DNA of 64,000 nt from Sphingobacteriales bacterium JAD_PAG50586_3. Lineage in GTDB: Bacteria > Bacteroidota > Bacteroidia > CAMBQF01. This document shows positions 6,243 to 40,757 of this stretch, one piece after another. Below the pieces are notes generated by a model. It had not been told where the DNA came from and made no database searches. It was given only the letters and a program-made list of their open reading frames with translations. Position 1 is the stretch's first letter; the number at the start of each line of letters is the position of its first letter. A program made the position numbers and the translations under genes. The DNA lies in NCBI GenBank assembly GCA_023213195.1, contig CP096135.1, positions 404,923 through 468,922 of the forward strand, read 5' to 3'.

Positions 6243-7063
6243 TAAAACTATCGGTAGTAATAATAGCTTTTAACGAGGAGCGCAACATAGGCCGCTGTAT
6301 AGATTCTGTTTCGGAGATTGCAGATGAAGTACTTGTGGTAGATTCCGGCTCTACCGATGCTACTAAAGCCATTTGCGAAACTAAGGGAGCACGTGTAATA
6401 GAGCATGCTTTTGAAGGACATATAGAGCAAAAAAACTATGCCGCGTTGCAAGCTACTTATGAGTGGGTTCTTAGCCTTGATGCCGATGAGGCATTATCGC
6501 CGGAACTACAAAATTCTATTAAAGAGTGGCTAAAGGGTGCAGAAAATGAAAATCATTCTAATACCCCCTCTCCTTGGGAGAGGGGGCGGGGGGTGAGGCC
6601 TAACGGCTACACCATGAACCGTCTTACAAACTACTGCGGGCATTGGGTGCGCTATTGCGGCTGGTACCCCGATACTAAGCTACGCCTGTTTAACCGCGCA
6701 TTTGGCGCTTGGGGCGGCACTAACCCGCACGACAAGTACGAACTGCACGATAAAAAAGCCCCAACAGGTTTTCTTAAAGGCGACATACTACATTACAGCT
6801 ACTACACGGTAGACGAGCATTATAAGCAAATGACCTACTTTGCCGATATTGCCGCCAAAGCATCTGTTGCAAAAGGCAAAAAGGCAAACTCATCAAACCT
6901 GATAATAAACCCGGTGGCCAAATTTATACGGCACTTTATAGTAAAATTGGGCTTTTTAGATGGTAAAACAGGCTTTACCATTAGCCGCATATCGGCCTGG
7001 GGCACGTATTTGAAGTACTATAAAATGCTGGAGATACAAAGATCAGGGGTCAGAAGCCAGTAA
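6239..7063 (+). CDS. Glycosyltransferase family 2 carrying an in-frame palindromic insertion
   Basis: LSVVIIAFNEE, VVDSGSTD, LSLDADE, GWYPD, HYSY. Confidence 0.9.
   Translation: MIKLSVVIIAFNEERNIGRCIDSVSEIADEVLVVDSGSTDATKAICETKGARVIEHAFEGHIEQKNYAALQATYEWVLSLDADEALSPELQNSIKEWLKGAENENHSNTPSPWERGRGVRPNGYTMNRLTNYCGHWVRYCGWYPDTKLRLFNRAFGAWGGTNPHDKYELHDKKAPTGFLKGDILHYSYYTVDEHYKQMTYFADIAAKASVAKGKKANSSNLIINPVAKFIRHFIVKLGFLDGKTGFTISRISAWGTYLKYYKMLEIQRSGVRSQ
6564..6598 (+). repeat. Family A palindromic element inside the GT2 coding region
   Basis: CCCCCTCTCC-TTG-GGAGAGGGGG perfect 10-bp stem plus GGGGGTGAGG tail, as in the intergenic copies at 40244-40290 and 40544-40592. Confidence 0.8.
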
Positions 7064-7171
7064 TCAAGGGTTAGCTGATTTCATCAACAAACATAGCCCA
7101 TGGTTTCAACTATGGGAATAAAAGCACAATAACCCTTTCAATTCTGCAATTAAATCGGCAATTTTGCATTT

Positions 7172-8224: not shown

Positions 8225-9486
8225 ATGACTATAAAACAAGCCTGCACACTTTGCCTATTTTTGTTTCTGCTGCTTTGCTTTATAATGCCCGTAAGGGGAA
8301 CGCTGGATATAGGCTATTGGGTTGGCTGGGCTTTAAACATGAATACGCGCGGGTTTAAAAATGCCTACACCATTCCTGAGTTAAATTACAACCCCTTGTT
8401 TTTGTATGTGCTATACGGGTATGGTTATGTAATGCATACCCTGCAAAATATTGAGGAAAACATTAATTACCTTAAAATATTTGTACTGCTTTTTGATTTT
8501 GCCCCGGTTATGCTTTTAATGTGGTGGCTTAATAAAAACGGGCGCAGTTTCTTCAACGGTTTTTTTATCCTCTTTAACATTGCTTATCTATACAACACCA
8601 TATATTGGGGGCAGGTAGATGCTATACACACCGCTTTAATATTCTTTGCTATTTATTTAGCAATAGAGCAAAAGCTTTCCCTTAGCCTTTTATTATTTCT
8701 GCTGGCAATAAACACCAAAACACAATCAGTTTTCTTTTTGCCAATACTAGGGTTGTTATGGCTGCCATCATTAAAAGGCAATGGCAGGCAACTGTTAAAA
8801 AGCTTGGGGTTATTGGTTATTGCACAGCTGCTAATAATATTGCCATTTTTAATTGGTGGCACCACTAGCCATGTGTTGAACAACTATGTAGGTGTTGTTG
8901 ATTTTAACCACGGCCTTTCTATGCACGCCGATAATTTTTGGTACCTGATGATGTGGGACAGTGCAGACCTTCCATTTCTTACAAGCGACCAAAACCAGTG
9001 GCTGGGCTTTACCTTAAAAACATGGGGACTTATTTTGTTTTTTGCATTTGCTACTGTTGTGTTGCTTCCCTTATTAATTAAAGCCATTGTTAATTTTTTA
9101 CAACGCACACGCTTTAGCCTTGCGGGTTGTGAGCATATATTGTTAACAGGCGCTTTGGTAACATTGGTTTTTTTCTATTTCCCTACCCAAATGCACGAGC
9201 GGTACTCTCACCCCGCTATGCTTTTTATGGGCGGTTACTTTATGCTGTCGCGCAGGTGGTTTATGTTCCTGCTACTATCGTTTGCTTATGTAATGAATTT
9301 AGAAGCGGTAGACAGAAGCTGGAAAATGGCTAATTACAATATACTTATTTTTGATGCCTAAGGTTAATAGCATCAATATTTGGATTAGTAATAATTTTGG
9401 GCATTTACAGGCTGTATAAAGATTATGGCTTAAAAGCAGATTGGGAGTATTTAAAAAACAACTTTGCAAAACGGGCAATTGCATGA
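8225..9486 (+). CDS. GT-C-fold membrane glycosyltransferase-like protein (paralog 1), frameshift near 9359
   Basis: Multi-TM; LNYNPLFLY, WGQVDAIHT, PTQMHERY; corrected frame ends at TGA 9484-9486 overlapping the next ATG. Confidence 0.7.
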
Positions 9487-10743
9487 AACTAAATTACGGC
9501 TATACAATTTGTATTATATTTTTTATCCTGCTGTGCTTTTTACTGCCACCGCCGGGAGATTATGATACCAAATTTTGGATAGAATGGTGTACTGCATTTA
9601 AAGTAACAGGTCTTGCACATGCTTATACAATAGAAGACCTAAACTACAACCCCGTTTACCTGTACGTGCTACGCGCCTATGCAGCCATAATGCCCGATGC
9701 CAATAGCATTGCCGCCAATATAAACTACCTTAAAATAGTTACCTTGTTGTTTGATTTTGGTGCTGTAATGCTGCTAATGTGGTGGGCCAACAAACACGGG
9801 CGAAACATATTTTTAGCATTTTTTGTACTCTTTAATATTGGCTACCTGTATAATACCTTCTATTGGGGGCAGATAGATGCCATACATACCACTATGCTTT
9901 TTGGGGCGTTTATTTTGGCTTTAGAAGAAAAGCTAATATGGAGCGTAGTTGTGTTTTTAATAGCGCTAAACACCAAAACTCAATCTATATTATTTTTACC
10001 AATACTAGGCCTGTTGTGGCTGCCATTGCTAAAAGGCAACGGAAAAGCGGTAGCTAAAGGTTTGGTTGCGCTTGTTGTTGTGCAGGTACTTATTATACTG
10101 CCCTTTTTACTAAAAGGCACTGCGGGGGCTATATGGCAAAACTATGTTGGGGTGGTAGACTATAACAGGTTCCTATCTATGCATGCCTACAATTTTTGGT
10201 ATTTGGTTTTATGGGAAAATACAGAGGTAGCAAGGCATATACCCGATAGCTATACCTTGGAATGGGGTTACTTTTAAAACCTGGGGGTTGCTTATGTTTG
10301 CCATAGCATCGGCTATAACGTTGTTCCCTTTGTTGGTAAAGTCTATGGCGGCACTGGCAAAGGGCAGCCGTTTAGGTTTTGCACAGGCAGAACAGGTTAT
10401 GCTAAGCGCGGCGCTGGTAGCGGTAATTTTCTTTTTCTTTCCCACCCAAATGCACGAGCGATACTCGCACCCTGTATTGCTTTTTGCCGGGGCGTATTTT
10501 GTATTTAGCAAGCGTTGGGTACTATTTCTTTTTGTTTCTTATGCCTATTTAATGAACTTAGAATCGTTGGATAAATGTTGGCAACTGGATAACTACGGCA
10601 CCTTTATTTTTGATGCACGCCTTGTTGGCTTTTTATATGCTTTTGCATTAGTTTATGGCACCTACAGGCTGTATAAAGATTATGGGTTTAGGAGTGATAT
10701 TCAGTATTTAAAACAATCCTTCAAACTATCCTCTACTCAATAA
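9483..10743 (+). CDS. GT-C-fold membrane glycosyltransferase-like protein (paralog 2), frameshift near 10257
   Basis: LNYNPVYLY, WGQIDAIHT, NTKTQS, PTQMHERYSHP shared with paralog 1. Confidence 0.7.
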
Positions 10744-10751
10744 ACACTGCA

Positions 10752-11735
10752 CTATTTCAAATCCACCTCTAGCACAAACGGGTCAAACACCTGCGCTATA
10801 TAAAGTTTGCCTTTGTAAATAAGCCCTGTTGAATTGGCACTTATACGTTTACCATCATCAGCAAAAACAACACGGCTGGCCAGTGTTTTATAGTTTACCG
10901 CATAGGTTATCCCCGGCGATGGCTTACCTGATTTTTTAACGTGCCCAAGAAACTTAAAGGGTTTGGGGTGGGCTACAATTATAAGCTCATCGCCATGCAA
11001 TGTAATGTTATCATACCCATAAAAAGGGGCGATATTTACAGAGGTTTTAAGTGTACCATCAGCATTTTTAGTGTAGCGGTTTAGTACTTTTTGCTGCACG
11101 GTAGATATATAGACATTGGTATCTAACACCAATACCCCATTGGCATAAGCTAATTTTTCAGCTACTACAGAGCAGTTGCCCAAGCTGTCGAACATTACCA
11201 CATTGGCCCTTTTTTTCTTAAACAGTTTTTCGCCTAAAGAGCCACGTTTGCCGCTGTCGTTAGTAACATACACACTGCCGTTTGGCCCTGCGGCACAATC
11301 GTTGGGCGATACTAAGAACGCGCTGCTAAACTGTTTTTCATACACTAACTTGTTGGCTTCAACGGTATACATAACAATAAAATGCTGTTTTAAATCGTCG
11401 CGGTGGCTTACTACATACAGGTAGGTGCTGCCGTTACGGGTAATAATATCTATACCATGAGGGTTAAAAACAAAACCTGCAGGCTCGCCAACACGGGCTA
11501 ATGCTTTAGCTTCCTGTCCATCAAAACGGTATTCCATTATTTCGCCCAAATAAGCCTCGCCCTCTCTGCGTGCATTGCACGATATTAGCAACCGTGGGCT
11601 TGATGATGTGCTGTCTACCACAATATCTTCGGGGCCGGGGCCACACTTAATCTGGCGCGTAGCATTATCAGAATTTTTAGGCAGGCTTGCGCACGATGCC
11701 ATGGTGATTATTACAAAAAGTACTATATACCTCAT
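10752..11735 (-). CDS. Arylesterase/paraoxonase (SMP-30/strictosidine synthase-like beta-propeller) lipoprotein
   Basis: Lipobox MASC, PGPEDI, FNPHGI, SPND, ANG, DNI motifs. Confidence 0.8.
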   Translation of the reverse strand: MRYIVLFVIITMASCASLPKNSDNATRQIKCGPGPEDIVVDSTSSSPRLLISCNARREGEAYLGEIMEYRFDGQEAKALARVGEPAGFVFNPHGIDIITRNGSTYLYVVSHRDDLKQHFIVMYTVEANKLVYEKQFSSAFLVSPNDCAAGPNGSVYVTNDSGKRGSLGEKLFKKKRANVVMFDSLGNCSVVAEKLAYANGVLVLDTNVYISTVQQKVLNRYTKNADGTLKTSVNIAPFYGYDNITLHGDELIIVAHPKPFKFLGHVKKSGKPSPGITYAVNYKTLASRVVFADDGKRISANSTGLIYKGKLYIAQVFDPFVLEVDLK

Positions 11736-15190: not shown

Positions 15191-15273
15191 AATACAAAGT
15201 GTTATGCCGCAAAAGTAAAAATAATTTCTTTACTAACGGCGCTATAATTAAGTTTGCAGCTAAATTTAGCAGC

Positions 15274-16248
15274 TTGATATCTCTTTTCCGCTCAAAAAAC
15301 CTTTTATGTATCATACTGGTGCCCTTGGCAGCAGTGCTGCTTTGGCTTACTCCGCTGCTTAGTCCGCCCATGGCCGATGTGCAATTTTCTATGCCCCTCT
15401 TCACCAAAATTTTTGATGCCCTGCGCTTTAACTGGGAGGTAAAAATTGTTTTAGCCGTGCTTTTAGTGCTGGCAATGGGCTTTTTGCTAAACTACATTGC
15501 TACCGAGAATGAGCTTACGGCCAACAACTACCTGTCGGCCTTTATGTTTGTGGTGCTCTGCTCATCCAGCATCAGCATACAAAAGCTAAATGCCGAACTT
15601 TTTGCCAACTTGTTTTTAATGCTGGCCCTGTGGCGCATCTTCAACATGTATAAAACCGAAGGCTCTATAAGGCCGCCGTTTGATGCCGGTTTGCTTATTT
15701 CCATAGCCTCTTTCTTCTACTTCCCCGCGGTGGGCATGCTAATTATGCTGTACATAGCCATAGCCATGCTAAGGCCTTTCCATTGGCGCGATTTTGCTGT
15801 GGCAACCCTGGGCCTTATACTACCCTACCTGTACCTATCGGTATACTATTTTTGGTTCGATAAGCTGGATTATTTTTGGAACCACTACATAGCCGAGCCA
15901 TTCCTAATACGCAACCTAAACTTTAACCCCAACTTTACCGATTATTGGCTGGTGGGCATTATAGCCCTGCTGGTGCTGGTATCGTTGTTCGACAATTTTA
16001 CCAATCCCACCCTAAACCGCAGCATACGCCGCCGCAAGTACCTAAACGTAATGGTGGTATACCTTATGGTATCATTCGCCTGCTTTGTGCTAACGCCCGA
16101 TTGGTCGCCCATGCATTTTGTTATATCGGCACTGCCCCTGTCTATCTTCTTTTCCAACTTTTTACTCTCGTTCAAATTCAACTACTTCCCCGAAGCCATC
16201 CTTTGGATGCTGCTAATAGTTATTGCCGCCAACCAGTTTGGGTTGTAA
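15274..16248 (+). CDS. Bacteroidota membrane protein (DUF6427-like)
   Basis: Multi-TM protein; TTG 15274 preferred because TAAGTTTG (-7 element, 15249-15256) lies inside the longer ORF-track frame. Confidence 0.6.
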   Translation: MISLFRSKNLLCIILVPLAAVLLWLTPLLSPPMADVQFSMPLFTKIFDALRFNWEVKIVLAVLLVLAMGFLLNYIATENELTANNYLSAFMFVVLCSSSISIQKLNAELFANLFLMLALWRIFNMYKTEGSIRPPFDAGLLISIASFFYFPAVGMLIMLYIAIAMLRPFHWRDFAVATLGLILPYLYLSVYYFWFDKLDYFWNHYIAEPFLIRNLNFNPNFTDYWLVGIIALLVLVSLFDNFTNPTLNRSIRRRKYLNVMVVYLMVSFACFVLTPDWSPMHFVISALPLSIFFSNFLLSFKFNYFPEAILWMLLIVIAANQFGL

Positions 16249-16269
16249 AGGGCACATGGCGCTACGCGC

Positions 16270-16860
16270 CACCGGGCTGTACTTTATTTGTGCGTTGCAC
16301 GTCATCCTGAACTTGATTCAGGACCTGTGCTGGCTGCGCCTGAAACCCTTGCGGCTGTAAATAAAAGAGCACGTTTTGAACCTCCGTTTTTAGGTCCCTC
16401 TCATTGAGAGCCTGTGCTGACATTAATCGTCAGTAGGTGGATGTCGCCAAAGGCGACAGACGGGAGAGGTTTTGCCCTTTCAAACTCCCCATCGCTGTAA
16501 ATAAAAGAACGCGTTTTGAACCTTTAATTTTATCTAATTTGTATTTTCCATATTCTGTCAAGTAGTTTACCCGTTTGTAAGCCTTGTGGCTGTAAAAAGG
16601 GATGCCTTTGGCATAAATAAATTTAACAAAATGTTGAGCTTGCGAAATCCCGACATTTATCGTCGGGAAACATTCATTTATAGGATTTTTAACTGGCATA
16701 GTTTAGTTGATTAAGCTCGTAGATTTTTCACCTTTCGTTTTTCATTTTTAGTTTGGCCGAAGGCCTCGCTGTTGTAGTAAAATTTTGTGTTTTTGCAGGA
16801 GATTTTTCGTTTTTCATTGTTAGTTTTTAGGCATGTCCCAACATTTATCGTTGGGGTTAT
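16270..16860 (-). repeat. Palindrome-cassette array 1
   Basis: GCTGTA-type motif at 16276, 16354, 16494, 16589, 16768 separating different hairpins; 30-bp duplicate 16354-16383 / 16494-16523 (28/30 identical). Confidence 0.7.
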
Positions 16861-16862
16861 TA

Positions 16863-16894
16863 CAAAGATACAACCCCGCCTACCCCTTTGTCAA
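16863..16894 (-). promoter_or_regulatory. Orphan promoter pointing into array 1
   Basis: Minus strand TTGACAAA-GGGGTAGGCGGG-GTTGTATCTTTGT. Confidence 0.7.
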
Positions 16895-16917
16895 CTATTG
16901 TTAATATTAAACCCTCC

Positions 16918-17023
16918 GTGGTAGGTGTTTAGCTCCCGATGTTTCGGGGGCGTCACCTACCACTTTTATTCATCGCTATTTTTCACGCCGTGGTCGGTGT
17001 TAAAGTGCAACGCCACCGACCAC
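16918..17023 (-). repeat. Two GTGG-type REP hairpins left of the RAYT
   Basis: GTGGTAGGTG...CACCTACCAC (16918-16963) and GTGGTCGGTG...CACCGACCAC (16990-17023). Confidence 0.85.
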
Positions 17024-17043
17024 TAAATTTTCCGCACTCTTCC

Positions 17044-17622
17044 CTAACTAAAATACATATTGGTTAAAAAAGACCAGTACTCATCATTCAAATTGTAAAA
17101 CGCAGCCGAACTATATTTATAATCCTCTGCTGTGTCAGCTAATTGCCATTTTTCCTGTAAAGGGTTGCGGTGTATATATTGTAGCTTTTGAGTAAACATC
17201 GGCATAGTCAATATTTCAACTGATAATGGTCTTCGCTCCCATAGCTGATATTTACGGTCTACCGCTTCAACCAAAAAGCGCTCATCTAATAAAGCTGGGT
17301 TAGTTTTTTCTAAATCACGTTTAATTTGTTGCGATGTATATTTTAAAAAGTCGCGCTGAACGGCTGACTTAGTATCAACTTCATTCATGCTCCAAATAAT
17401 GTGAATGTGGTTGGGCATTATAACAAATCCGTATACTGTTACCCGATCTTGATTGGTAAGATATATAAGGCTATATATAATGATTTCTTTGTACCTGTTT
17501 TCTTCTAAAACAGGAAACCAATTTAATATAGTCGCAGTAAAGAAATAGGGCGGGTTATGTATGTTAAATGTAGCAAGCACAAAGCAAATATAATACAGTC
17601 GGCTTTTATTGGCAGACAGCAA
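17044..17622 (-). mobile_element. REP-associated tyrosine transposase (RAYT, HUH Y1); true start may be GTG 17580
   Basis: YFFTAT, YGFVIMPNHIH (HUH), QKLQYIHRNP (catalytic Tyr), YKYSSA; flanked by REP hairpins. Confidence 0.9.
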
Positions 17623-17644
17623 CGTTCTTGGTCTCGGCTTTTAA

Positions 17645-17677
17645 GTGGCAGGTGACGTTGCACTAAACACCTGCCAC
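17645..17677 (+). repeat. GTGG-type REP right of the RAYT
   Basis: GTGGCAGGTG-ACGTTGCACTAAA-CACCTGCCAC. Confidence 0.85.
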
Positions 17678-18015
17678 GGCGTGAAAACGCAGGGCCCGGA
17701 GGAAGTGATGCTGTTTTATCTGAAATTGAAATTACGGCGCCTGTTGGTATTAAAGAATTGCTTATAATAGATAGTGGATTATTATTGTTTCCCAACCCTG
17801 CCAATACAACTATTTCAGTTGTATTGGAAAATACAGTATTAAATCCTACCTTGAAAATCACTAACATTTTAGGCCAAGTTGTATATAACCAAACTTTAGA
17901 AGGAATGCAAAAAGCATTTGGTAAAATAAATATTAGTAACTTAGACAATGGAGTTTATGTTATATCGATTAGTAACGATAAATATAGAAGTGTTTCAAAG
18001 TTTGTAAAACAATGA
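17656..18015 (+). pseudogene. 5'-truncated T9SS substrate (linker + type A CTD only)
   Basis: Frame open from the REP to ...TAPVGIKE...LFPNP...LDNGVYVI...KFVKQ*; no signal peptide or ATG. Confidence 0.65.
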
Positions 18016-19447
18016 AATTAAATATTCTAATAATCCTTTTATTGATAGTTAAAATTAACTCAGCACAGCCCATGCCCGATAGTCTGGGGCATGGGTTAAA
18101 TATGCAGGTTTCTTGTATTTATTCCGATACTGCAAATGATATAATGATAGTTGCTGGAAGTTTTACAACTGCAGACAGCAGAATAGCTGTTGGTTTTGCC
18201 AAATATAATGGCACTGTATGGGATACTACAATGTGTGGCTTCACACAAGACTGTAATTCTACTTCACCCTTTTGGGGGCAATTCACTAATGTAATAACCC
18301 CTTATAATGGGCAATTATATTTTGGCGGTGTATTTGATTGGGCAGGCGGAATACACACCGGAGGCATCGCCATGTTAGATGGCGACACCTTAAAGGCGGT
18401 AGGGGGTATTGTAATGGAAACGTCACACAACTTATAGAATACAATGGGGATTTAATTGCTGCCGGACATTTTGATACTATAGGAGGGCAAAATATAAAAC
18501 AACTTGCCCGCTGGGATGGTCAGCAATGGCATCCTTTTTATCAACCCTATATTGATACCTGTAACACTACTGTTTTTATGCCAACTGATATGGCAGTATA
18601 TAATGGAGAACTTTATATATCTGGCGGATGGATGGATTGTTATCCTGGTTTAGGTTCTTTAGTAAAATGGAACGGTAGCCAGTGGAGTGTTATACCCGGG
18701 TTCAATCTGCAAGCTCAAATAGGTGTTACCGATATCGAAGTCTATCAGGATAAATTAATTATAGCAGGCCGCTTTCATAAGCCTGGGGGCTATGAAGGGA
18801 ACTGCATTATGGCTTGGGACGGACAACAGTTCTACGACATGGAAAATGGCATTACCGCCCTTTCTACCCCTCAACAATATTATTGGGGTGGCACTAACGA
18901 TATGATGATTGTCAATGATAATTTGTTTATTGTTGGTGAGTTCATTGAAGTTGGGGGCTCTCCTATTTCGCGTGTCTCTTGGTGGGACGGAAATCATTGG
19001 TGCGGCTTTACTTGGGACTATTCTCAATACATTCCTACCGCCATAGGACACATAAACAATGATATATACATAGGCTCTGGAGCCTATAGATTTATAAATG
19101 GTATTGATTATAATTATATCATCAAACTACCATCCCTAGACAGTGCTAATATTTGTAGCGATGGCACATTGGCATCGGTTTCAACCCAACCATTCAACAA
19201 CCCAATCAAAATCTACCCCAACCCCGTTACTGATAACCTTACCCTGGAGTATAATTTAGATAAGGCAAGCAATTTCAAATTCGCGTTGTACGATGTGCTA
19301 GGCAATATAATTTATCAGGAAGAAAAGCCTAATGCCTATGGCTATTACTATTATTCAATTCCTACCCTAAACCTTGCCAACGGCCTATACATAGCCCGCA
19401 TAGAGCTTAACGGCAACAGCATGGTTAAGAAGATAATCAAACAATAA
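18012..19447 (+). CDS. T9SS type A substrate with beta-propeller-like repeats, frameshift near 18415
   Basis: Signal peptide, repeated (A/V)xW(D/N)G..W motifs, CTD IYPNP...LANGLY; AT-rich. Confidence 0.8.
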
Positions 19448-23365: not shown

Positions 23366-26300
23366 TTACTTGCGGCCGGTTTGTTTCCATGGGCTTTGAG
23401 CAGGTTGCGTAGCCTTAGGTACTACTTTTTGCACAGGCGCAGTTGCAGGCTTAGTAGCAGGTGCTGTAGCCGGTTGGGTAGCCGGTGCGGTAGTTGCAGG
23501 CTTGGCAGCACTGCGTGGCTGTGTAGAGTTGGCGTTTTTACTTGCCACTTCTTTAGCCTTTTTAGCAGCTGCTCTGTTTGCATCATCAGCCAAGCTTTCA
23601 GCCTCTAGTTTATCAGCTTTAGCTTTGCGGTTAGCCATTTCAACTTTCTTGTTGTTGGCATTATCTGCAGCGTTGGCTTTTATAGTAGCACCATCGGGCA
23701 CTTTAGGTGCATTAGTTTTAGCATTTTCTATTATTTGGCTAATAGCAGTTTTGCCTGTAGCCGGGGTGGCGCTGCGTGGGCTTATTAAAGCGCTTTGACC
23801 TTTAGATTTTGGTTGACCGTAAACCTGAGGGTACAAATACGTTCCTTTAAGCGGAGCTGGTTTTTCTACTTCAGGCACTACACGGTTTGCATTGGCATAG
23901 GGGTCTTGACGTATGCCTGTAATTTGCCAGCTAACTTTTACGTTGGGCTTATCGGTTTGTATAACAAAGGTATTACCATCTAACTCTTTAGCAACAATGG
24001 CTTGGGCAAAAGTGCCCATAGCGGTAAGCTGGTAGCGGAAATCTTTGTTAAGTGTAGAGAAGTAATCGGGCATGGTAACTGTTGCAAAACCGTTAGCATC
24101 GGTTACAATGTTACCATTGTAAACGTTCATCATATCGGGGCTTTCAACAAAGCTGTGGTATAGGTATTTGTTTTCGGGATCTAGGGGATGGTCTATTTTA
24201 AATGTACCACCACCCTTGGCAAGGTTGCCCAATACATCAACATCGCCATCAAAGTAGCCTGCATAACCAAACACAGAATTTCCTGATCCGGAATACTCTC
24301 CATAAACACCAATAGTAGCCAGCGGCGACCCTGCTGCTTCGTCTGCAACGCCATAAACACCAAAGTTATCAGCATTAGCAACTGGAGAGTAGGCATAGCC
24401 CGCCGAACCAATAGCTGAAGTACCTCCGGAAGATTGATTAAAACTACCGTAAGTATTTATACCTAGCCCTGCAGCATTATCAACAGAGTTTAGAACAGCG
24501 GTTGATCCGCTAGGAAAGTTAGCATTAAATTGAGTAGTTACATTAGCATTAACAACAGTATTGTAGGTTGCTACGGGGCCGTTGGCATTAACAAAAATAC
24601 CGGCAGCATTTAACTCATTAAACCCGGGACCGCTAATCTCGCTATATACACCAATATTAGAGCTAAAATCAAAATCGGTAACTAAGTTGTTGTAAGTACC
24701 ATAAGATGTAGACGAATCGCCAGAGAATATTACATTGTTATCGCCATAAGTAACGTTGTTATTGCCGGCATTTGCAAGAAATATTTTGTTGCTTCCGTAG
24801 GTAACGTTATTACCGCCACCTAAAAATACGGTTGCCTCGTTTACTGCTATGCTATTACCTGATGTAGCAAAAATATTATTTCTATTACCTAATATAGTAC
24901 TGTTGTTATTAGTAAAGTAAACATTATCGGTACCCAATAAAGAGTTATTATCTCCGGTAGTAGACAATGCTGCACGGTTAGCAGTAATTGTGCTATTAAG
25001 CCCACTAAATAAACTAAAGTTATTACCATCTATAGTAGAATTGTCGCCTACAAAAATACTAGCGTCGTTTAGTTGCGCATCTGATGCGATACCGAAATCA
25101 ATAAACGTTGAAAAAGACCTTACAAGAGCACTATCAACAGCTCTAAACTCATTGTCTATACCGTATATTTGGTTGTTAGGGCTGCTATCAAACAACTCTA
25201 TATCGTTGAAGATGCCTTTAAATACAGAATTGTTTCCATCAATATCGTTATAAAAGCCCCAAACTTCAGAACTGTCGCCATTAATATCACCGTCTAAACC
25301 ATAAATTCGGTTTCCGTTATTGATATCAAAATCAAAGCCTTTTTGGCGGTCTTGATTATCACCAACAAACATAGCCAGGTCGAAACCAACAGCTGTTCCA
25401 CTGGCACCTCCGTTAGTAGATAATTCAATGCCTACTAAATCAGAATTATCTCCACCATTAACATTAACACCTATACCGTAGTAGTTATTATCTTTAAAGC
25501 TAGGGTTATCTACCCTTAAACCATAATAACCACCGGTAAACTCACCACCTATACCATAATAATCGCCGGTAAACGAAGTACCTTCAACAGCAATAATATC
25601 ACTGATAGTAGACGAGTCAGGGTCTAGCTGTGGCCCTGTGTAAACAAAAGAACCAATAGTGGGGATGTTACTGTTTAATGTAAAAGTTGTATCTGAAGTA
25701 GCCCTAAATATATAGTCGTTATTTTTATTACGATAGAACACTTCCATTTGCGATGCTGCGGGCTGAGCGTTAGTGCCTATGCCAAAATTGCCATTTACAC
25801 CCACACGGGCAGCTTCTGTGTTATTAGTGCGGAAAACCAAGTCTTCTCCATCTAAGGTACCAATAAAGTTTATAGAGTCGTTAGTGGCGGCATTGCCTGT
25901 GGTTAACCAACCGTTAGATACAGCAGCAACGGTGTCGGGTTGCCATGATGCAAAACCGTTAGCGTCTGATTTTAGAACATAACCAACAGCCTCGTTACCA
26001 TCGGTATAACGGAAAGAGCCGTTAACATCTAGCTTAGCTTGTGGTAGTTGATTGTTAATACCAACAAAGCCACTGTCTGGGGTTATTACCATCTCAAAAT
26101 TTGGATTTTGGTCAACCCCGGCATCAAAAACCAAAGTTTTAGGAACTAAACCAGAGAAACTGGCACGGCCAATAACCGCATCTAAGCCGGTACTATCGTT
26201 TATAAAGAAGAAGGCTGAGTATGAGGTATTAGTATCTGGCCTGTTTTGCAGCACAAATGTGTTTGCAACCCCACCTTGGAAATAACCGGTTGTAGAAAAC

Positions 26301-28903
26301 GCATTGGTATCAACCACACTTAGTTTAGCTAAAAATGGGTTGGTAGTGCCAATGCCAACATTACCGTTAGTAGAGTAGCGGGCAACTTCGTTATTGTTAG
26401 TACGAACAACAAAATCAATAGAGTCTGTAGTACCAATAAAATTAGTAGAAGCATCAGTACCGGCATTGCCTGTAGTTAGCCAAGAACCTGAAACAGTGCC
26501 TGCAGGTTGCCATGTAGCATTACCGTTAGCGTCTGATGTAAGTACATAGCCAGCTGCCTGGGTACCATCTTCTAAACGGAATGTACCATTTAAATGCAAT
26601 GTTGCCGTAGGGTTAGTAGTACCAATACCAACACCATTGCCATTGTCAAATATTTGAGAGTCGCCTAACGTTTGTCCATCAGGGGTAAACTTAGGAATGT
26701 AGTTAAGAGTGCCGTTTATATTAGCCGCACCGGTTGGGCCGGTAACGCCTGTAGCACCTGTTGAGCCTGTTACACCAACTCCAGTAGGACCTGTTGGGCC
26801 TGTTGCACCATCAAGACCGTTTAATCCATTTATACCGTTTGTACCGTTAGCTCCGGTTGGGCCGGTTTCGCCTGTTGCACCTGTAGCACCTGTTGCGCCA
26901 TCAAGACCGTTTATGCCGTTTGTGCCATTAGTGCCTGATGGGCCTGTTACACCAACTCCAGTAGGACCTGTTGGGCCTGTTGCGCCATCAAGGCCGTTTA
27001 TACCGTTTGTGCCGTTAGCACCTGTTGGGCCTACTGGGCCCTGTGCACCTACGCCTACTTTATGTCCGTTAAAATAACCCGAGAAAATAGTTAGGGTACT
27101 TAATGTTGTATTGTTAACCTCTACAGTTACAACATCGCCTGCTGTAAGTTGTACATCGGCCGATAAATCTAATGCCTGAAGAGCACCACCGCTGCTATAA
27201 TTGGTGGTACTTTGGTTTACCGTAACTCCGTTATTTTTCAAATAAGTAATCACTCCACCTACCCCACCGGTAAACGCATCAATTTCTACATCAAAGTGAT
27301 ACAATCCGGTTTCTGTGCAAGTAAATTCGCCTGTGCCATTATTAAATAGTGCGCCTTCTATATAAACAGTTGTTGGGAATAGTATAGTTGTAGTAGAATT
27401 TGAATTTACGGTAGAAATAGCTGCCGTAGCTTTAAAATCGGCGTTACTGCCTGCCGGGCCTGCAGGGCCTGTTGGGCCAGTTACGCCTACACCTGTAGGA
27501 CCGGTTACACCAACACCTGTTGGACCAGTTGCGCCTTGTAAACCAACACCTGTTGGGCCGGTTGGGCCGGTTTCGCCTGTTGCACCATCAACACCGTTTA
27601 TACCGTTAGCGCCTGATGGGCCTGTTGGGCCGGTTTCGCCTGTTGCACCTGTAGCACCTGTAGCGCCATCAAGACCGTTTATGCCGTTTGTGCCATTAGC
27701 GCCTGATGGTCCTGTTACACCAACTCCCGTAGGACCTGTTGGGCCTGTTGCGCCATCAAGGCCGTTTAATCCATTTATACCGTTTGTACCGTTAGCTCCG
27801 GTTGGGCCGGTTTCGCCTGTTGCACCTGTTGGGCCTGTTGCGCCATCAAGGCCGTTTAATCCATTTATACCGTTTGTACCGTTAGCTCCGGTTGGGCCGG
27901 TTTCGCCTGTTGCACCTGTTGGGCCTGTAGCACCATCAAGGCCGTTTGTACCGTTTGTGCCATTAGTGCCTGATGGGCCTGTTACACCAACTCCAGTAGG
28001 ACCTGTTGGGCCTGTTGCGCCATCAAGGCCGTTTAATCCATTTATACCGTTTGTACCATTAGCGCCTGTTGGACCTTGTGGGCCTTGAATACCCTGTAGA
28101 CCGGTTGCTCCGGTAGCACCTGTTGCTCCGTCAAGACCGTTTACACCATTAGCGCCCGTTGGGCCTTGTGGGCCTTGAATACCCTGTAGACCGGTTGCTC
28201 CGGTAGCACCTGTTACTCCGTTTATTCCGTTTGTGCCATTAGCTCCGGTTGGGCCTTGTAAGCCTTGTGGGCCTTGTGCACCTGTTGCGCCTGTAGCACC
28301 GTTCAATCCATTTGTACCGTTAGCTCCGGTTGGGCCTTGTAAGCCTTGAGGGCCTGTTAAACCCTGAACTCCTTGCGGGCCTGTTGGACCCTGGGTGCCT
28401 TGGGGACCTTGAATTCCCTGCGCACCTGTTGGGCCGGTTAAGCCGTTAGTACCGTTTGTTCCGGCAGGGCCGGTTATACCTTGTGGACCTGTTGGGCCTG
28501 CCGGGCTATTATTAGCATACAGCGCGTAGGGTACACTTATTAGTTCTGATACGCCAGCTACCGTATAGGTAGTGCCGCCCGTAGGGTCAATCTCGGTTCG
28601 GATGTATTTGCTGCCGCTGCCCCAGGCTATAGAAGCAAAATTGCCGCTTGTTACCGTACCATCGCCCACCTTTAGGTTGAATAAACCAAAGGGGTTGGTG
28701 GTTAAACTGTGGGTTTCCTGATACACAATGGTACCTCCGGGAGAGCCATCAACTATACTTAACCGAACGCCAATGGGTTGGTTAGGCAGTTCTGCTCCCG
28801 ATGGGTTACGGGCAATTGCCTGGTAATTAAATTTTTGCGGGGCTTGTGCGTTTGCGCTCAAAGCAAAGAACACAATACTGAATATCAGTATTAGTTTTTT
28901 CAT
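23366..28903 (-). CDS. 1845-aa collagen-like fibre protein (fibre 4)
   Basis: Signal peptide; NYQAIARN...SVPYALYA N-domain; two Gly-X-Y tracts around a C1q-like domain; GIGTTNP tail-fibre-like repeats; [14 protein letters not shown]-domain; Lys/Ala/Pro tail; no T9SS CTD. Confidence 0.85.
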
Positions 28904-38263: not shown

Positions 38264-38359
38264 TATTCAGAGGTCAGTAGTCAGGGGTCAGTAATAAGAC
38301 TATTGCCACATTATATTTAAACCCTCATCAGCAATGGTGGGGGTTTTGTTTTACCAACT

Positions 38360-38412
38360 ATCCCCTAAAATAGGGGAGTACGTCCCGGTAGCAATCGGGA
38401 CGGGAGGGGGTA
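38360..38412 (+). repeat. Family A palindromic element
   Basis: TCCCCTA-AAA-TAGGGGA followed by GTCCCG...CGGGAC and GGGAGGGGG. Confidence 0.7.
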
Positions 38413-38456
38413 TAAATATCCTATATGTGTTATTTGTTTTTGTTACCTTTATAATA

Positions 38457-39413
38457 ATGAAACGCCTGCTATTAATAATTGCCTTTGGGTTTTGCACTTA
38501 TATTAACAAAGCACAAACCTATGTTCCTTTCCCAACATCAACAGATAATGCTGTATGGAATATTTCTTCATCGTCGCACGAAGGGACATGTCGATTTTAT
38601 GATTTATTTATTACGGGCGACACAACAATACATAACAAAAGCTACGTAAAGCTAGGGTTTCGTGGCATTATTTATCTATGGAACCCCGATATGGAACCTT
38701 GGTGCAGTGGTGTAGCCCCTGCTTACTCTTTTAGTACAAAACGATACGCATACCGAGAAGATTCAACCCATAAAATATATTTTCGTTCAATTAGTCACCC
38801 AATATATGATACAACAGAGTTTTTACTATTTGATTTTGGTATGCAGGTTGGCGATAGTTTAAAAGGCTATTTTTCACAACAAAATTTTGGTATAATACCA
38901 ATTGTATCCAGTATTGATTCTATTCAAATTGACAATAATTGGCGTAAGAAATTTAACTTCAAAAACGGTTTTGATACCCTAGAAGGTTGTTTTTACCTAA
39001 TAGAGGGGATAGGCACTAATATGGGTTTTTTAGATATACAAGGTTGTCCATTTTTTGAAAGTTCGACAACATTAAATTGCTTTAAACGGTATGAGGTAGT
39101 TATTTGGAATAATAGTAATTCCAGTTGTAGCGATTACAGCTTTATTAATTCAAACAAAGAGAACCTGCTAAATAATTTACATATAGCAATATACCCAAAC
39201 CCTGCACAAGATTTTGTGAATATAGAACTACCCCAAAGCTATAACCAAGCCAGCCTTAATATTTATAACCTAACAGGTCAGCTAATTTCTCAAAAGCCAA
39301 TAACATCAACCCAAATACCTATTGCAGAGTTGGGTAATGGTATGTACATCTTTGTCATTCAAAATGGAGATAAGGTTATAGGCAGGCAGCGGGTGGTAGT
39401 GGTAGCGAGGTAG
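38457..39413 (+). CDS. T9SS type A substrate of unknown function (AT-rich)
   Basis: Signal peptide from ATG 38457, YVPFP start, LIEGIG motif, IYPNP...LGNGMY CTD. Confidence 0.8.
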   Translation: MKRLLLIIAFGFCTYINKAQTYVPFPTSTDNAVWNISSSSHEGTCRFYDLFITGDTTIHNKSYVKLGFRGIIYLWNPDMEPWCSGVAPAYSFSTKRYAYREDSTHKIYFRSISHPIYDTTEFLLFDFGMQVGDSLKGYFSQQNFGIIPIVSSIDSIQIDNNWRKKFNFKNGFDTLEGCFYLIEGIGTNMGFLDIQGCPFFESSTTLNCFKRYEVVIWNNSNSSCSDYSFINSNKENLLNNLHIAIYPNPAQDFVNIELPQSYNQASLNIYNLTGQLISQKPITSTQIPIAELGNGMYIFVIQNGDKVIGRQRVVVVAR

Positions 39414-39736: not shown

Positions 39737-39788
39737 TTGACAAATGGAGATTAAATGTTGTATCTTTGTGGTGTTATTCGAATAGCAC
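39737..39788 (+). promoter_or_regulatory. Orphan promoter plus palindromic operator-like site, pointing into array 2
   Basis: TTGACAAA-TGGAGATTAAAT-GTTGTATCTTTGT, then GTGTTATTC-GAATAGCAC (39771-39788, one mismatch). Confidence 0.7.
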
Positions 39789-39799
39789 AATATTAATAG

Positions 39800-40680
39800 T
39801 AAAAAAACAAAAAACTGCCGCGGCAAACCTCCCCCGCCCTAAAGGGCACCCCCTCTATGAGGGGGACAAATAAGGGACAGTACCTACAATGCTTATTACG
39901 ATTCAGAATGATGGTTTAATGATGGCCCCACCCCAAACCCCTCCCCCAAGGAGAGGGGCTTAAAAAAGGCCTTTAGAATTTAAGAGAAATAATTTAACAA
40001 GAGGACAAGCTTCGCAATGGCTAAGACCAGCCGAGCTTTTATAGCGGTGCCATTGGTCAGTTGGTAAATTGTTATGATAAGTGTTTGTCACCAATAGGTG
40101 GTTTGCGAAAGCGGGCTGCCTAAAGGTGTTTCATGCCTTCGGCAAACTAAAAACGAAAAGTAAAAAATGAAAAATAACTTTATCGGCTACTGCCTGCGGA
40201 GATTTAACCTCTCCCTGACAATCCAACAAGTTGTATTGTCTTTCCCCTCTCCAACGCGTGGAGAGGGGTGGCTGAAAGCCGGGGTGAGGTACCCGCAAAA
40301 TAACCTCATCAGCTACTGCCTGTAGGTGTGTAGTAACCACCCAATTCTGACTTATACAGTCAGAATTACCCCTCCTTAAAAAGGAGGGGAGTTAAAATAA
40401 TGAGCCGCGAAAACGAGTGCATTAGCAACATGCTGTAAGGGTTTGGTGTATCCCGAGATCCCGCATCAAGTGCGGGATGACAATCGTAGCAAAAGGGTGA
40501 GCAGAAATGATGTGGTTTGCTACTGCTTGTAGTACCTCCCCTGCCCCCTCCTAAATTTAGGAGGGGGTGGCGCGGCGAGTGCCGGGGTGAGGTATCCCCC
40601 GACGATGAATGTCGGGATGCTACAAAAGTGGCACGCGAAAACGAGTGTATTAACTACTGCCTGTAGGGGTTGGGGGCAAA
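39800..40680 (+). repeat. Palindrome-cassette array 2
   Basis: (G/A)CTACTGCYTGTAG-like motif at 40186, 40312, 40425 (degenerate), 40519, 40653; each interval holds a different hairpin. Confidence 0.75.
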
Positions 40681-40681
40681 C

Positions 40682-40711
40682 AAAAATCCCCGCCGAAGGG
40701 CGGGGATTTTT
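40682..40711. terminator. Bidirectional terminator
   Basis: AAAAATCCCCGCC-GAAG-GGCGGGGATTTTT. Confidence 0.8.
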
Positions 40712-40757
40712 AAATATGTGTATCAGTGTGTGAATACTGACCTCTGATTACTGACTA

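Follow-up and report, generated by a model that had tools for sequence, protein, structure and literature searches.

Mosaic arrays of intergenic repeats are known from a few Proteobacteria, and to our knowledge both their formation and their role are still unclear after decades. In the Neisseria intergenic mosaic elements (NIMEs), dRS3 repeats separate more than 100 families of RS elements, and these arrays are strain-variable and thought to recombine (PMC1797815); the bacterial interspersed mosaic elements (BIMEs) are their counterpart in Escherichia coli (PMC2817692, PMC3333891). Literature searches returned no description of such arrays in Bacteroidota. The window analysed here, that is, the whole stretch of DNA under study, comprises 64,000 nucleotides (64 kb) from Sphingobacteriales bacterium JAD_PAG50586_3 (GCA_023213195.1, contig CP096135.1, positions 404,923 to 468,922 of the forward strand), and it harbors a gene-free stretch of about 650 bases (within the window interval 16249-17043), termed Array 1, which is one member of a repeat-array family. 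An initial annotation made from the letters of the DNA had described this stretch as an orphan minus-strand promoter reading into a growing stack of mobile palindromes. Array 1 is found to belong to a family of polar mosaic repeat arrays that occupy intergenic sites and are restricted to one lineage; in these arrays a promoter module (P) precedes copies of a 40-45-nt repeat (R) that alternate with hairpins of several families.

The family was delimited from the 64-kb window and 1.57 Mb of fetched DNA, and its members outside the window lie in three related metagenome-assembled genomes (MAGs), CAMBQF, JBIPNX and JAIXUZ, all of which are fragmentary. A scan for the extended promoter, with one genome per species, gave 11 stretches, including seven in CAMBQF, one in JAIXUZ and one in JBIPNX, and behind each stretch in these three MAGs, GC-rich palindromes and copies of R are stacked in DNA free of genes. 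A profile of R was built from 19 copies and used in an nhmmer search of the window and the fetched DNA; the scan for R added loci that all came from the same three MAGs, and with the window included, about 20 loci hold a total of 39 distinct copies of R. Every one of the 39 copies lies downstream of a TTGACAA...GTAYCTTTG module and in the same orientation as that promoter. R was absent from the rest of the 1.57 Mb and from viral contigs (0 matches), the matches in metagenome contigs of the Joint Genome Institute (JGI) were chance matches inside genes for P-type ATPase and other proteins, and a metagenome scan with the 3' end of the DUF6427 gene that borders Array 1 returned no match. The modules follow a rough order of P, heptad leader or ATGCC module, composite hairpins and R; the minimal P-to-R units measure 111-124 nt and are then followed by stable hairpins. 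Two of the loci, L058 and L079, are paralogous over long stretches.

The downstream side is visible for 17 arrays, and 12 of them lie upstream of a co-oriented gene, with P on the distal side and the promoter of that gene on the proximal side. The genes concerned are functionally unrelated and include atpD, rpsA, pckA, polA and those for an aldehyde dehydrogenase, an ArsR regulator, an ABC transporter and an M23 peptidase, among others. The remaining five arrays, Array 1 among them, run into a convergent gene; the term orphan promoter therefore fits Array 1 and does not describe a trait of the family. Several arrays start directly after the stop codon of a gene for a secreted or surface protein sorted by the type IX secretion system (T9SS), as seen at 38334-39413 and 18338-19447 in the window and for the upstream genes of L149, L167 and L028, an adjacency that may be comparable to the link between NIMEs and genes for surface proteins.

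The window contains a second array. At 39737-40150 (+), a second consensus promoter is followed by a conserved non-coding element of approximately 370 nt, which has homologues in L078 and L138, each with a different palindrome insertion. With no Rfam match and no downstream gene, this element is a candidate non-coding RNA (ncRNA) gene. Array 2 occupies 40150-40720 (+), where a heptad module capped by GCCTTCGGC is joined by numerous palindromes and a single GACG hairpin (40601-40613). Its four CTACTGCCTGTAGG-type and two CGAAAACGAGTG..GGGTTTGG motifs are diverged relatives of R that were missed by the R profile, and the array ends at a bidirectional terminator (40683-40710). Array 2 and L138 are among the arrays that follow the conserved candidate ncRNA.

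The repeat R was recognized from a hexamer. The initial annotation had listed a TACAGC-type motif five times in Array 1, and all five sites are present, four as GCTGTA (TACAGC on the minus strand) at 16276, 16354, 16494 and 16589 and one as GCTGTTGTAG at 16768, against an expectation for the hexamer of 0.35 per 625 nt (Poisson P ~5e-4). The hexamer is the core of R, and in Array 1 three copies are clear, a fourth is degraded and the remaining site is the hexamer by itself: the R profile matches strongly at copies a, b and d, weakly at copy c and nowhere else in the window, so that by profile the site at 16276 is a bare hexamer without an R copy and the one at 16589 belongs to the degraded copy. 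The consensus of 38 distinct copies reads TGCAAAAAC-N3-AAATTTTACTACAAC-N5-GGGTTTYAG with an invariant TACA, and a variant reads GGTTCAAAACG-N5-CTTTTATTTACAGC. R copies are 75-85% identical and are spaced at 79, 140, 94 and 179 nt from start to start. In the R alignment, the outer AAAAC/GTTTT stem paired in 58.3% of cases, compared with 58.0% in shuffled columns, and the inner 3-bp A.T stem was trivial and no better than controls. Since neither candidate stem surpassed its controls, R is a primary-sequence motif and not a hairpin. Two resemblances were discarded: the likeness of the GTGCTCTTTTATTTACA variant to BoxA (NusB/S10) was dropped because the commoner R type is devoid of CTCTTT, and the likeness to a Cas12a repeat (CTGTTGTAG) lies on the wrong strand, with no hairpin in Array 1.

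P is, by consensus match, a Bacteroidota sigma-A promoter, and its sequence is as the initial annotation had described it. Its TTG (16894-16892), 21-nt spacer and TATCTTTG as the -7 box (16870-16863) conform to the sigma-A consensus of TTG near -33 and TAnnTTTG at -12..-5 (PMC9723704), and placing the -7 box accordingly at -12..-5 gives a predicted transcription start near 16858. In many Bacteroidota the extended consensus is also present upstream of ordinary genes, queA for example, which makes P a credible promoter instead of a chance match. The pattern TTGACAAA-N12-GTTGTATCTTTG occurs at exactly two sites in 64 kb, 16863-16894 (-) and 39737-39768 (+), where 0.02 would be expected, and AAAACG-N10-13-TACWGC occurs three times in the window against 0.24 expected; both motifs, for which the initial annotation had proposed a genome-wide search, stand above background in the window. 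The extended form TTGACAAAGGGG-N6-RGGTTGTATCTTTG is present at seven loci of CAMBQF as well as in JAIXUZ and JBIPNX. P is a repeated sequence in its own right: its spacer, which makes no contact with the sigma factor, is kept between unlinked loci of at least two subfamilies. R and the -7 region of P (16863-16880) match one another in part as inverted copies (GGGTTGTA/TACAACCC; TTGTAGTAAA/TTTACTACAA in relatives). This complementarity of TTGTAGTAAA and TTTACTACAA is real at the consensus level; it shows no covariation, lies upstream of the predicted start and may be a coincidence, and it was set aside.

No credible gene follows P, in agreement with the initial annotation. An 89-aa open reading frame (ORF) at 16430-16699 (-) has no family match, its counterpart at the orthologous locus L002 of CAMBQF, the nearest relative in which the array is present, stops after 20 codons, and it is spurious, there being no conserved ORF downstream of the promoter. 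Rfam 15 gave no match at E values up to 10 in 15500-18500, none at the gathering score in the window and nothing relevant in eight related loci; the only matches were weak ones to whalefall-1, on an unrelated palindrome in Array 2 and in L102. A scan of the window for tRNA and tmRNA returned none. The features of Array 1 and its border are compiled in the table.

Table. Features of Array 1 and its border with the RAYT (REP-associated tyrosine transposase; REP, repetitive extragenic palindrome) gene, in window coordinates
Feature	Position	Strand	Description
Terminal hairpin TGGCGC-TAC-GCGCCA	16257-16271		Adjoins the DUF6427 stop codon; conserved in L002 as GGTGGCGCTTGCGCCAGG
Palindrome	16301-16324		GTCATCCTGAACTTGATTCAGGAC; single copy across everything sampled; replaced in strain contigs X1 and X2
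R copy a	16340-16380	-	GGTTCAAAACGTGCTCTTTTATTTACAGCCGCAAGGGTTTCAGG; nhmmer 26.5 bits; L002 orthologue ~80% identical
Composite double-hairpin module C	16393-16468	-	CTCTCCC-GTCT-[GTCGCC..GGCGAC]-ATCCAC-[nested GACG hairpin 16415-16434]-[CTCTCA..TGAGAG]
R copy b	16481-16520	-	GGTTCAAAACGCGTTCTTTTATTTACAGCG...; 21.2 bits; 85% identical to copy a over 39 nt
Scaffold 17-mer	16556-16572	-	GGGTAAACTACTTGACA; 17/17 identical in L002
Ungapped block: 17-mer	16556-16572		100% identity to L002
R copy c	16577-16635	-	Degraded; weak nhmmer match 16577-16598; L002 orthologue uninterrupted
Hairpin h2	16648-16668	-	TCCCGACGATAAATGTCGGGA; missing here in L002, with copies at two other positions
'ATGCC' module M1	16669-16699	-	ATGCCAGTTAAAAATCC...; the spurious 89-aa ORF begins here
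A-rich heptad module, copy 1 of direct repeat D3	16721-16751	-	77% identical to 16800-16830; conserved in L002
Ungapped block: heptad, cap hairpin, R copy d	16721-16793		89% identity to L002
Small cap hairpin GGCC-GAA-GGCC	16754-16766		After R copy d
R copy d	16757-16797	-	TGCAAAAACACAAAATTTTACTACAACAGCGAGG; nhmmer 28.3 bits, E 2e-6 in 1.57 Mb
A-rich heptad leader, copy 2 of D3	16798-16835	-	Starts ATGCCT
Hairpin h1	16836-16857	-	CCCCAACGATAAATGTTGGGG; GACG/CGTC-type, loop GATAAAT; presence strain-dependent
Ungapped block: P and first REP	16860-16945		87% identity to L002
Promoter module P	16863-16894	-	TTGACAAA, 12-nt G-rich spacer, GTTG-TATCTTTG
Two REPs cognate to the RAYT	16918-16963 and 16990-17023		Third REP at 17645-17677; pattern search: 3 in window, 0 expected
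RAYT gene	17044-17622	-	NF047646 78.2 bits (cutoff 80), E 6e-22; best PDB match 4ER8 TnpArep

Between the R copies of Array 1 lie intervals of 40-140 nt, which contain several palindrome families and no conserved ORF; the view of the initial annotation that the intervals hold different palindrome families is borne out by the GAT(A/T)AAT-loop hairpins, the composite module and others. Hairpins with a GAT(A/T)AAT loop are located at 16415-16434, 16648-16668 and 16836-16855 in Array 1 and at 40601-40613 in Array 2, amounting to four in the window against 0.02 expected, and each is oriented as its local promoter. The loop-asymmetric GACG hairpins occur in the window only within its two arrays, with an orientation that follows the local P in 4/4 cases, and the same agreement with P was found in 7/7 cases in the lineage sample. 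At the position of h1, the wastewater-metagenome contigs X1 and X2 lack 21+4 nt and L002 carries a different palindrome. What had been read as heptamer arms are direct repeats (16721-16751 and 16800-16830) and not inverted ones, and the 'CTAAAAAYGAAAAAC' module of the heptad leader follows P or R also in L043, L107, L148, L028 and Array 2. A GCCTTCGGC, GCCTTTGGC or GCCTTACGGC cap follows R in L002, L148, L186 and L201. The pattern ATGCCN3-4AAA..TCC is present between P and R also in L012, L043, L086, L102, L056 and L149; reading frames differ between the copies, so the module is non-coding, and the idea that the 'ATGCC' of M1 is a start codon was dropped.

Two composite modules keep a fixed frame around variable stems. 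The family of module C shares the frame CCCTC-GTCT-hp1-ATCCAC-hp2 in seven members, with a different hp1 stem in each. A further scaffold, termed Y (L107, oriented 6798-7158; L201, L012, L167 and L102), has the form CATCCCCTCTTGAGAGGGGTG-[hpA]-GGGGTGTGT..ACACACCTCCCC-[hpB]-GGTACTCCTCTCAAGAGGAGAT, and its frame is identical between copies while the stem sequences of hpA and hpB differ in every copy. R together with this five-hairpin scaffold constitutes a unit of 161-162 nt, which is arranged in tandem in L107, L201 and L012. What the arrays have in common is a small vocabulary of modules in fixed orientation and rough order, comprising P, the heptad leader, 'ATGCC', R and composite scaffolds with hairpin slots, and REP-like palindromes of 15-25 nt fill these slots.

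Comparison with relatives revealed both inheritance and turnover. L002 carries the orthologous array, and its DUF6427 gene shares 84% DNA identity with that of the window and 62% at 4-fold degenerate sites; the latter value compares with 87% in the 86-nt block that includes P. The array is inherited at its locus, and its scaffold (P, heptad, R copy d and the 17-mer) is far better preserved than neutral sites. What changes is the content: palindromes are gained, lost or replaced at numerous positions, and the number of R-containing units varies. Relative to L002, clean gains and losses of palindromes are distributed at many positions along the whole array, the GACG hairpin occupies different places, and R copy c is split by two palindrome insertions. 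One of the insertions in copy c is the hairpin ATGCCAAAGGCAT (16602-16614), which together with its T-run scores terminator-like in a terminator scan. In metagenome contigs of strains related at 90-99%, h1 is missing, 16283-16331 is swapped for 73 other bases and 16526-16676 is different. The cassettes differ between relatives and between strains, and in this the initial interpretation is supported. In JAIXUZ, locus L001 has a DUF6427 gene about 95% identical to that of L002, an approximate value from a comparison out of the correct reading frame, and here the array and everything up to the rng terminator are missing, leaving a DUF6427-rng interval of 70 bp. The same interval in L002 contains four AT-rich ORFs (L002 10072-13559, -), and in the window the RAYT and T9SS genes stand there. 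The arrays upstream of atpD, L148 and L151, have upstream flanks that are ~97% identical, unrelated interiors and two versus three R copies, and L056 possesses one extra unit of R plus a 110-nt palindrome compared with L085. Syntenic arrays vary in length and repeat number between strains or species (window/L002/L001, L148/L151, L085/L056 and strains X1-X4). R can share a stretch of 27 identical nucleotides at unlinked loci of different MAGs, while its orthologous copies are ~20% diverged.

The surroundings of Array 1 show the locus to be a rearranged one. The interval 16249-17043 is bounded by two stop codons, those of the DUF6427 gene (15199-16248, +) and the RAYT gene, and the terminal hairpin beside the former is probably the terminator of the DUF6427 gene. 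That a RAYT with its REPs adjoins the array, as the initial annotation had stated, is supported by the NF047646 match and three flanking REPs, whose 10-bp stems (GTGG-NN-GGTG/CACC-NN-CCAC) have a covarying central dinucleotide (TA/TA, TC/GA, CA/TG). The pattern GTGG-NN-GGTG..CACC-NN-CCAC is confined in 64 kb to 16918, 16990 and 17645, all beside the RAYT, and among 222 loci such REPs were found at the orthologous site of L002 only, the other arrays being without them. In L002 the two REPs are joined together and the RAYT gene is missing, and the array is present. A link between the array and the RAYT is accordingly not supported. At 17758-18015 (+), adjoining the REP/RAYT block, a C-terminal sorting domain of T9SS type (TIGR04183, 49.8 bits) stands as an orphan, its N-terminal part missing; it is a truncated cargo gene, which indicates that the region is rearranged. 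A Pfam scan of the larger ORFs within ~10 kb on either side detected no cas gene and no intI or other integrase gene; these ORFs encode GT2, PdxA, an FtsX-type permease, PurD, DUF6427, RAYT and T9SS proteins, together with RNase G, a TPR protein, a collagen/C1q protein and a P450. Three ORFs near Array 1 (8225-9361, 9441-10277 and 10752-11735) have no Pfam match. The collagen/C1q protein (23366-28903, -), with 1845 aa, collagen triple-helix repeats and a C1q domain, is unusual in a bacterium. GC skew in the window is too weak to give an orientation relative to replication.

To account for these observations, a joint reading is proposed that we regard as moderately probable, in which dispersal of a P...R element, exchange of units by recombination, gain of hairpins with their loss by slippage and read-through from P act together. 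A single ancestral P...R element would have spread to many places between genes and so given rise to the arrays, and homologous recombination or gene conversion, acting between dispersed copies of R and between other modules held in common, would continue to exchange and duplicate their units. Recombination or conversion of units between dispersed copies would explain the uniform orientation and the homogeneity of R, and likewise the 27-nt identity of R across unlinked loci while orthologues drift by ~20%. The small palindromes would be added by some hairpin-mobilising activity and lost by slippage. P would fire and read through the stack, which at most loci may yield a long hairpin-rich leader of the downstream gene; for Array 1, the predicted product would be a non-coding RNA ending near 16590 or an antisense transcript into the 3' end of DUF6427.

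Several points weigh against this proposal. A search for RNA-seq runs that cover Array 1 or the array L151 upstream of atpD returned none, the activity of P in all four genomes is a prediction, and recombination between arrays is suggested by mosaic patterns and was not observed as such. The above-neutral conservation of the scaffold and the 27-nt identity of R could reflect selection for function instead of concerted evolution. No recombinase, transposase or R-binding protein was identified, and the REPs of the adjacent RAYT are of a different family from the array hairpins. In addition, all relatives are fragmentary MAGs, so the R counts are not genome-wide.

The main rival is that the arrays are functional ncRNA loci, where P would drive sibling small RNAs or long structured leaders, R would serve as a single-stranded recognition segment (a 'seed' or a protein-binding site), and the GC-rich hairpins would stabilise, terminate or delimit the transcript. 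We consider this unlikely. It would be in keeping with a near-perfect consensus promoter conserved above the neutral rate, with modules that are all co-oriented with P, with the short minimal P-to-R units and the stable hairpins behind them, with an A/U-rich and unpaired R, and with the arrays that follow the conserved candidate ncRNA. Moreover, the C and Y slots keep a hairpin of 5-7 bp while the stem sequence changes, which is covariation-like, and the predicted RNA of Array 1 folds better than shuffled sequences (z = -3.3). However, the interiors turn over completely between orthologous loci, orthologous R copies are ~20% diverged, there is no Rfam match, and the hairpins are mostly devoid of U-tails. 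A strand-specific wobble test on the array hairpins counted 5 G.T against 3 A.C mismatches and gave no signal, nearly all stems being perfect.

Less probable still is a role of the arrays in recombination or as landing pads in the manner of NIMEs, by which they would mark and promote the exchange or insertion of variable neighbours such as the DUF6427-rng island and T9SS cargo genes. The precedent of NIMEs, the DUF6427-rng interval that is different in all three genomes (window, L002 and L001), the truncated T9SS gene beside the REP/RAYT block and the arrays that begin right after genes with a T9SS C-terminal domain all speak for such a role. Nevertheless, most arrays lie upstream of conserved housekeeping genes, and no recombinase was identified. 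A bolder idea, which we hold to be just as doubtful, is that the P-headed arrays are expression platforms for new modular nucleic-acid elements, with R as the recognition site of some protein or RNA, C and Y slots that are deliberately exchangeable, and a gain of units targeted to promoter-proximal transcribed DNA. Should this be true, the arrays would represent a cassette system for short hairpins, at the level of RNA or single-stranded DNA, unlike CRISPR (clustered regularly interspaced short palindromic repeats), integrons and REPINs (REP doublets forming hairpins).

Very little probability remains for a leader-driven growing array of the CRISPR or integron kind, possibly served by the RAYT, and this model is largely refuted. 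Its appeal lies in the leader-repeat-cassette look that Array 1 has in common with CRISPR and integron arrays, with a leader or promoter at one end and a repeat alternating with variable inserts, in the adjacent RAYT, and in the extra unit of L056 relative to L085, which is promoter-proximal. Against it, the repeats are only 75-85% identical and irregularly spaced (79-180 nt), the cassettes belong to genomic repeat families and are not foreign DNA, indels are found over the full length of the array, cas and intI genes are absent within 10 kb, the RAYT REPs are not in the arrays, and other arrays are without a RAYT. The growing stack with polarity that had been envisaged is not supported by L002, in the DUF6427-rng comparison that the initial annotation had proposed: the scaffold is conserved, and the differences fall over the full extent of the array with no bias toward the promoter. 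The other observation of the initial annotation, that the layout matches neither CRISPR nor an integron, holds. A CRISPR array is ruled out by degenerate repeats at irregular spacing, by inserts that are endogenous, come from palindromic families and have no ORFs, instead of foreign spacers, and by the lack of cas genes within 10 kb. An integron or a cluster of attC sites lacking integron-integrases (CALIN) is ruled out by the lack of an attC-like fold in R, of a conserved ORF in the cassettes and of intI within 10 kb. The array is, on present evidence, not an acquisition system of either kind. Finally, a decayed gene or chance low-complexity clustering, to which the rearranged region (orphan T9SS domain at 17758-18015) and its AT-richness might lend themselves, is of negligible probability, given no family match, no conserved ORF and motifs far above shuffled expectation, and is refuted by the recurrence of the same array grammar at about 20 loci of the family.

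A cultivable relative could tell whether the arrays arise through recombination, through a mobile activity specific to one strand or through selection acting on an RNA. Further questions are opened as to whether the 20-25-nt hairpins are self-moving and whether the arrays modulate the housekeeping genes that they precede. On the practical side, the arrays fragment MAG assemblies, create spurious ORFs such as that of 89 aa, and would be sensitive strain markers.

Among the known systems, several share single traits with the arrays. The CGTC/GTAG-tagged repeats of Di Nocera et al. (2013) are small CGTC/GACG stem-loops, reported in Bacteroidetes and having no dedicated transposase (PMC3733652), and the REPs flanking the RAYT contain GTAG (GGTAGG); in the arrays, however, GACG stands at the stem-loop junction or, in module C, 2 nt outside the stem, and membership was judged by eye. 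The REP325/naRNA4 cluster of E. coli also consists of palindromic units with linkers and is transcribed into a non-coding RNA (PMC4550694), but its sequence and architecture differ from those of the present array, which is known at the level of DNA sequence. The BIME/REPIN-RAYT systems of Enterobacteria and Pseudomonas resemble the arrays in their extragenic palindromes with conserved non-palindromic linkers and in their lineage specificity, and a REP-flanked RAYT adjoins Array 1. BIMEs, however, consist of a single REP family whose members alternate in orientation and are joined by short linkers, and they mostly lie at the 3' ends of genes, whereas the present arrays combine several unrelated hairpin families, all in one direction, with a promoter module within the repeat. 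A BIME/REPIN array of the neighbouring RAYT is ruled out, as the cognate REPs are not array components and all orientable modules are direct and co-oriented.

The closest architectural analogue, an analogue and not a homologue, is the NIME, followed by the BIME. In NIMEs, too, a short conserved repeat alternates with many different repeat elements of 50-150 bp in intergenic DNA, syntenic arrays vary in repeat number and length, GC content alternates, and small repeats insert opportunistically (PMC1797815). The corresponding architecture was found here, with a repeat and diverse repeat families at many loci and with number and length variation in synteny. The differences are equally tangible: dRS3 is a 20-bp inverted repeat (ATTCCC-N8-GGGAAT) and R a 40-45-nt asymmetric unpaired motif; the present arrays are promoter-headed, strictly polar and from a different phylum; they set GC-rich palindrome cassettes against an AT-rich repeat, the reverse of NIMEs; and no link to a phage integrase or recombinase is known for them. 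None of the NIMEs, BIMEs and CGTC-tagged repeats has a promoter in the repeat, strict polarity or a 40-45-nt unpaired motif. The arrays are thus a promoter-linked, polar form of the NIME/BIME-like intergenic mosaic repeat arrays, and this independent example from Bacteroidota adds to the known mosaics a consensus promoter within the repeat, strict polarity of the modules, and an unpaired motif that is homogeneous despite the turnover of the interiors.

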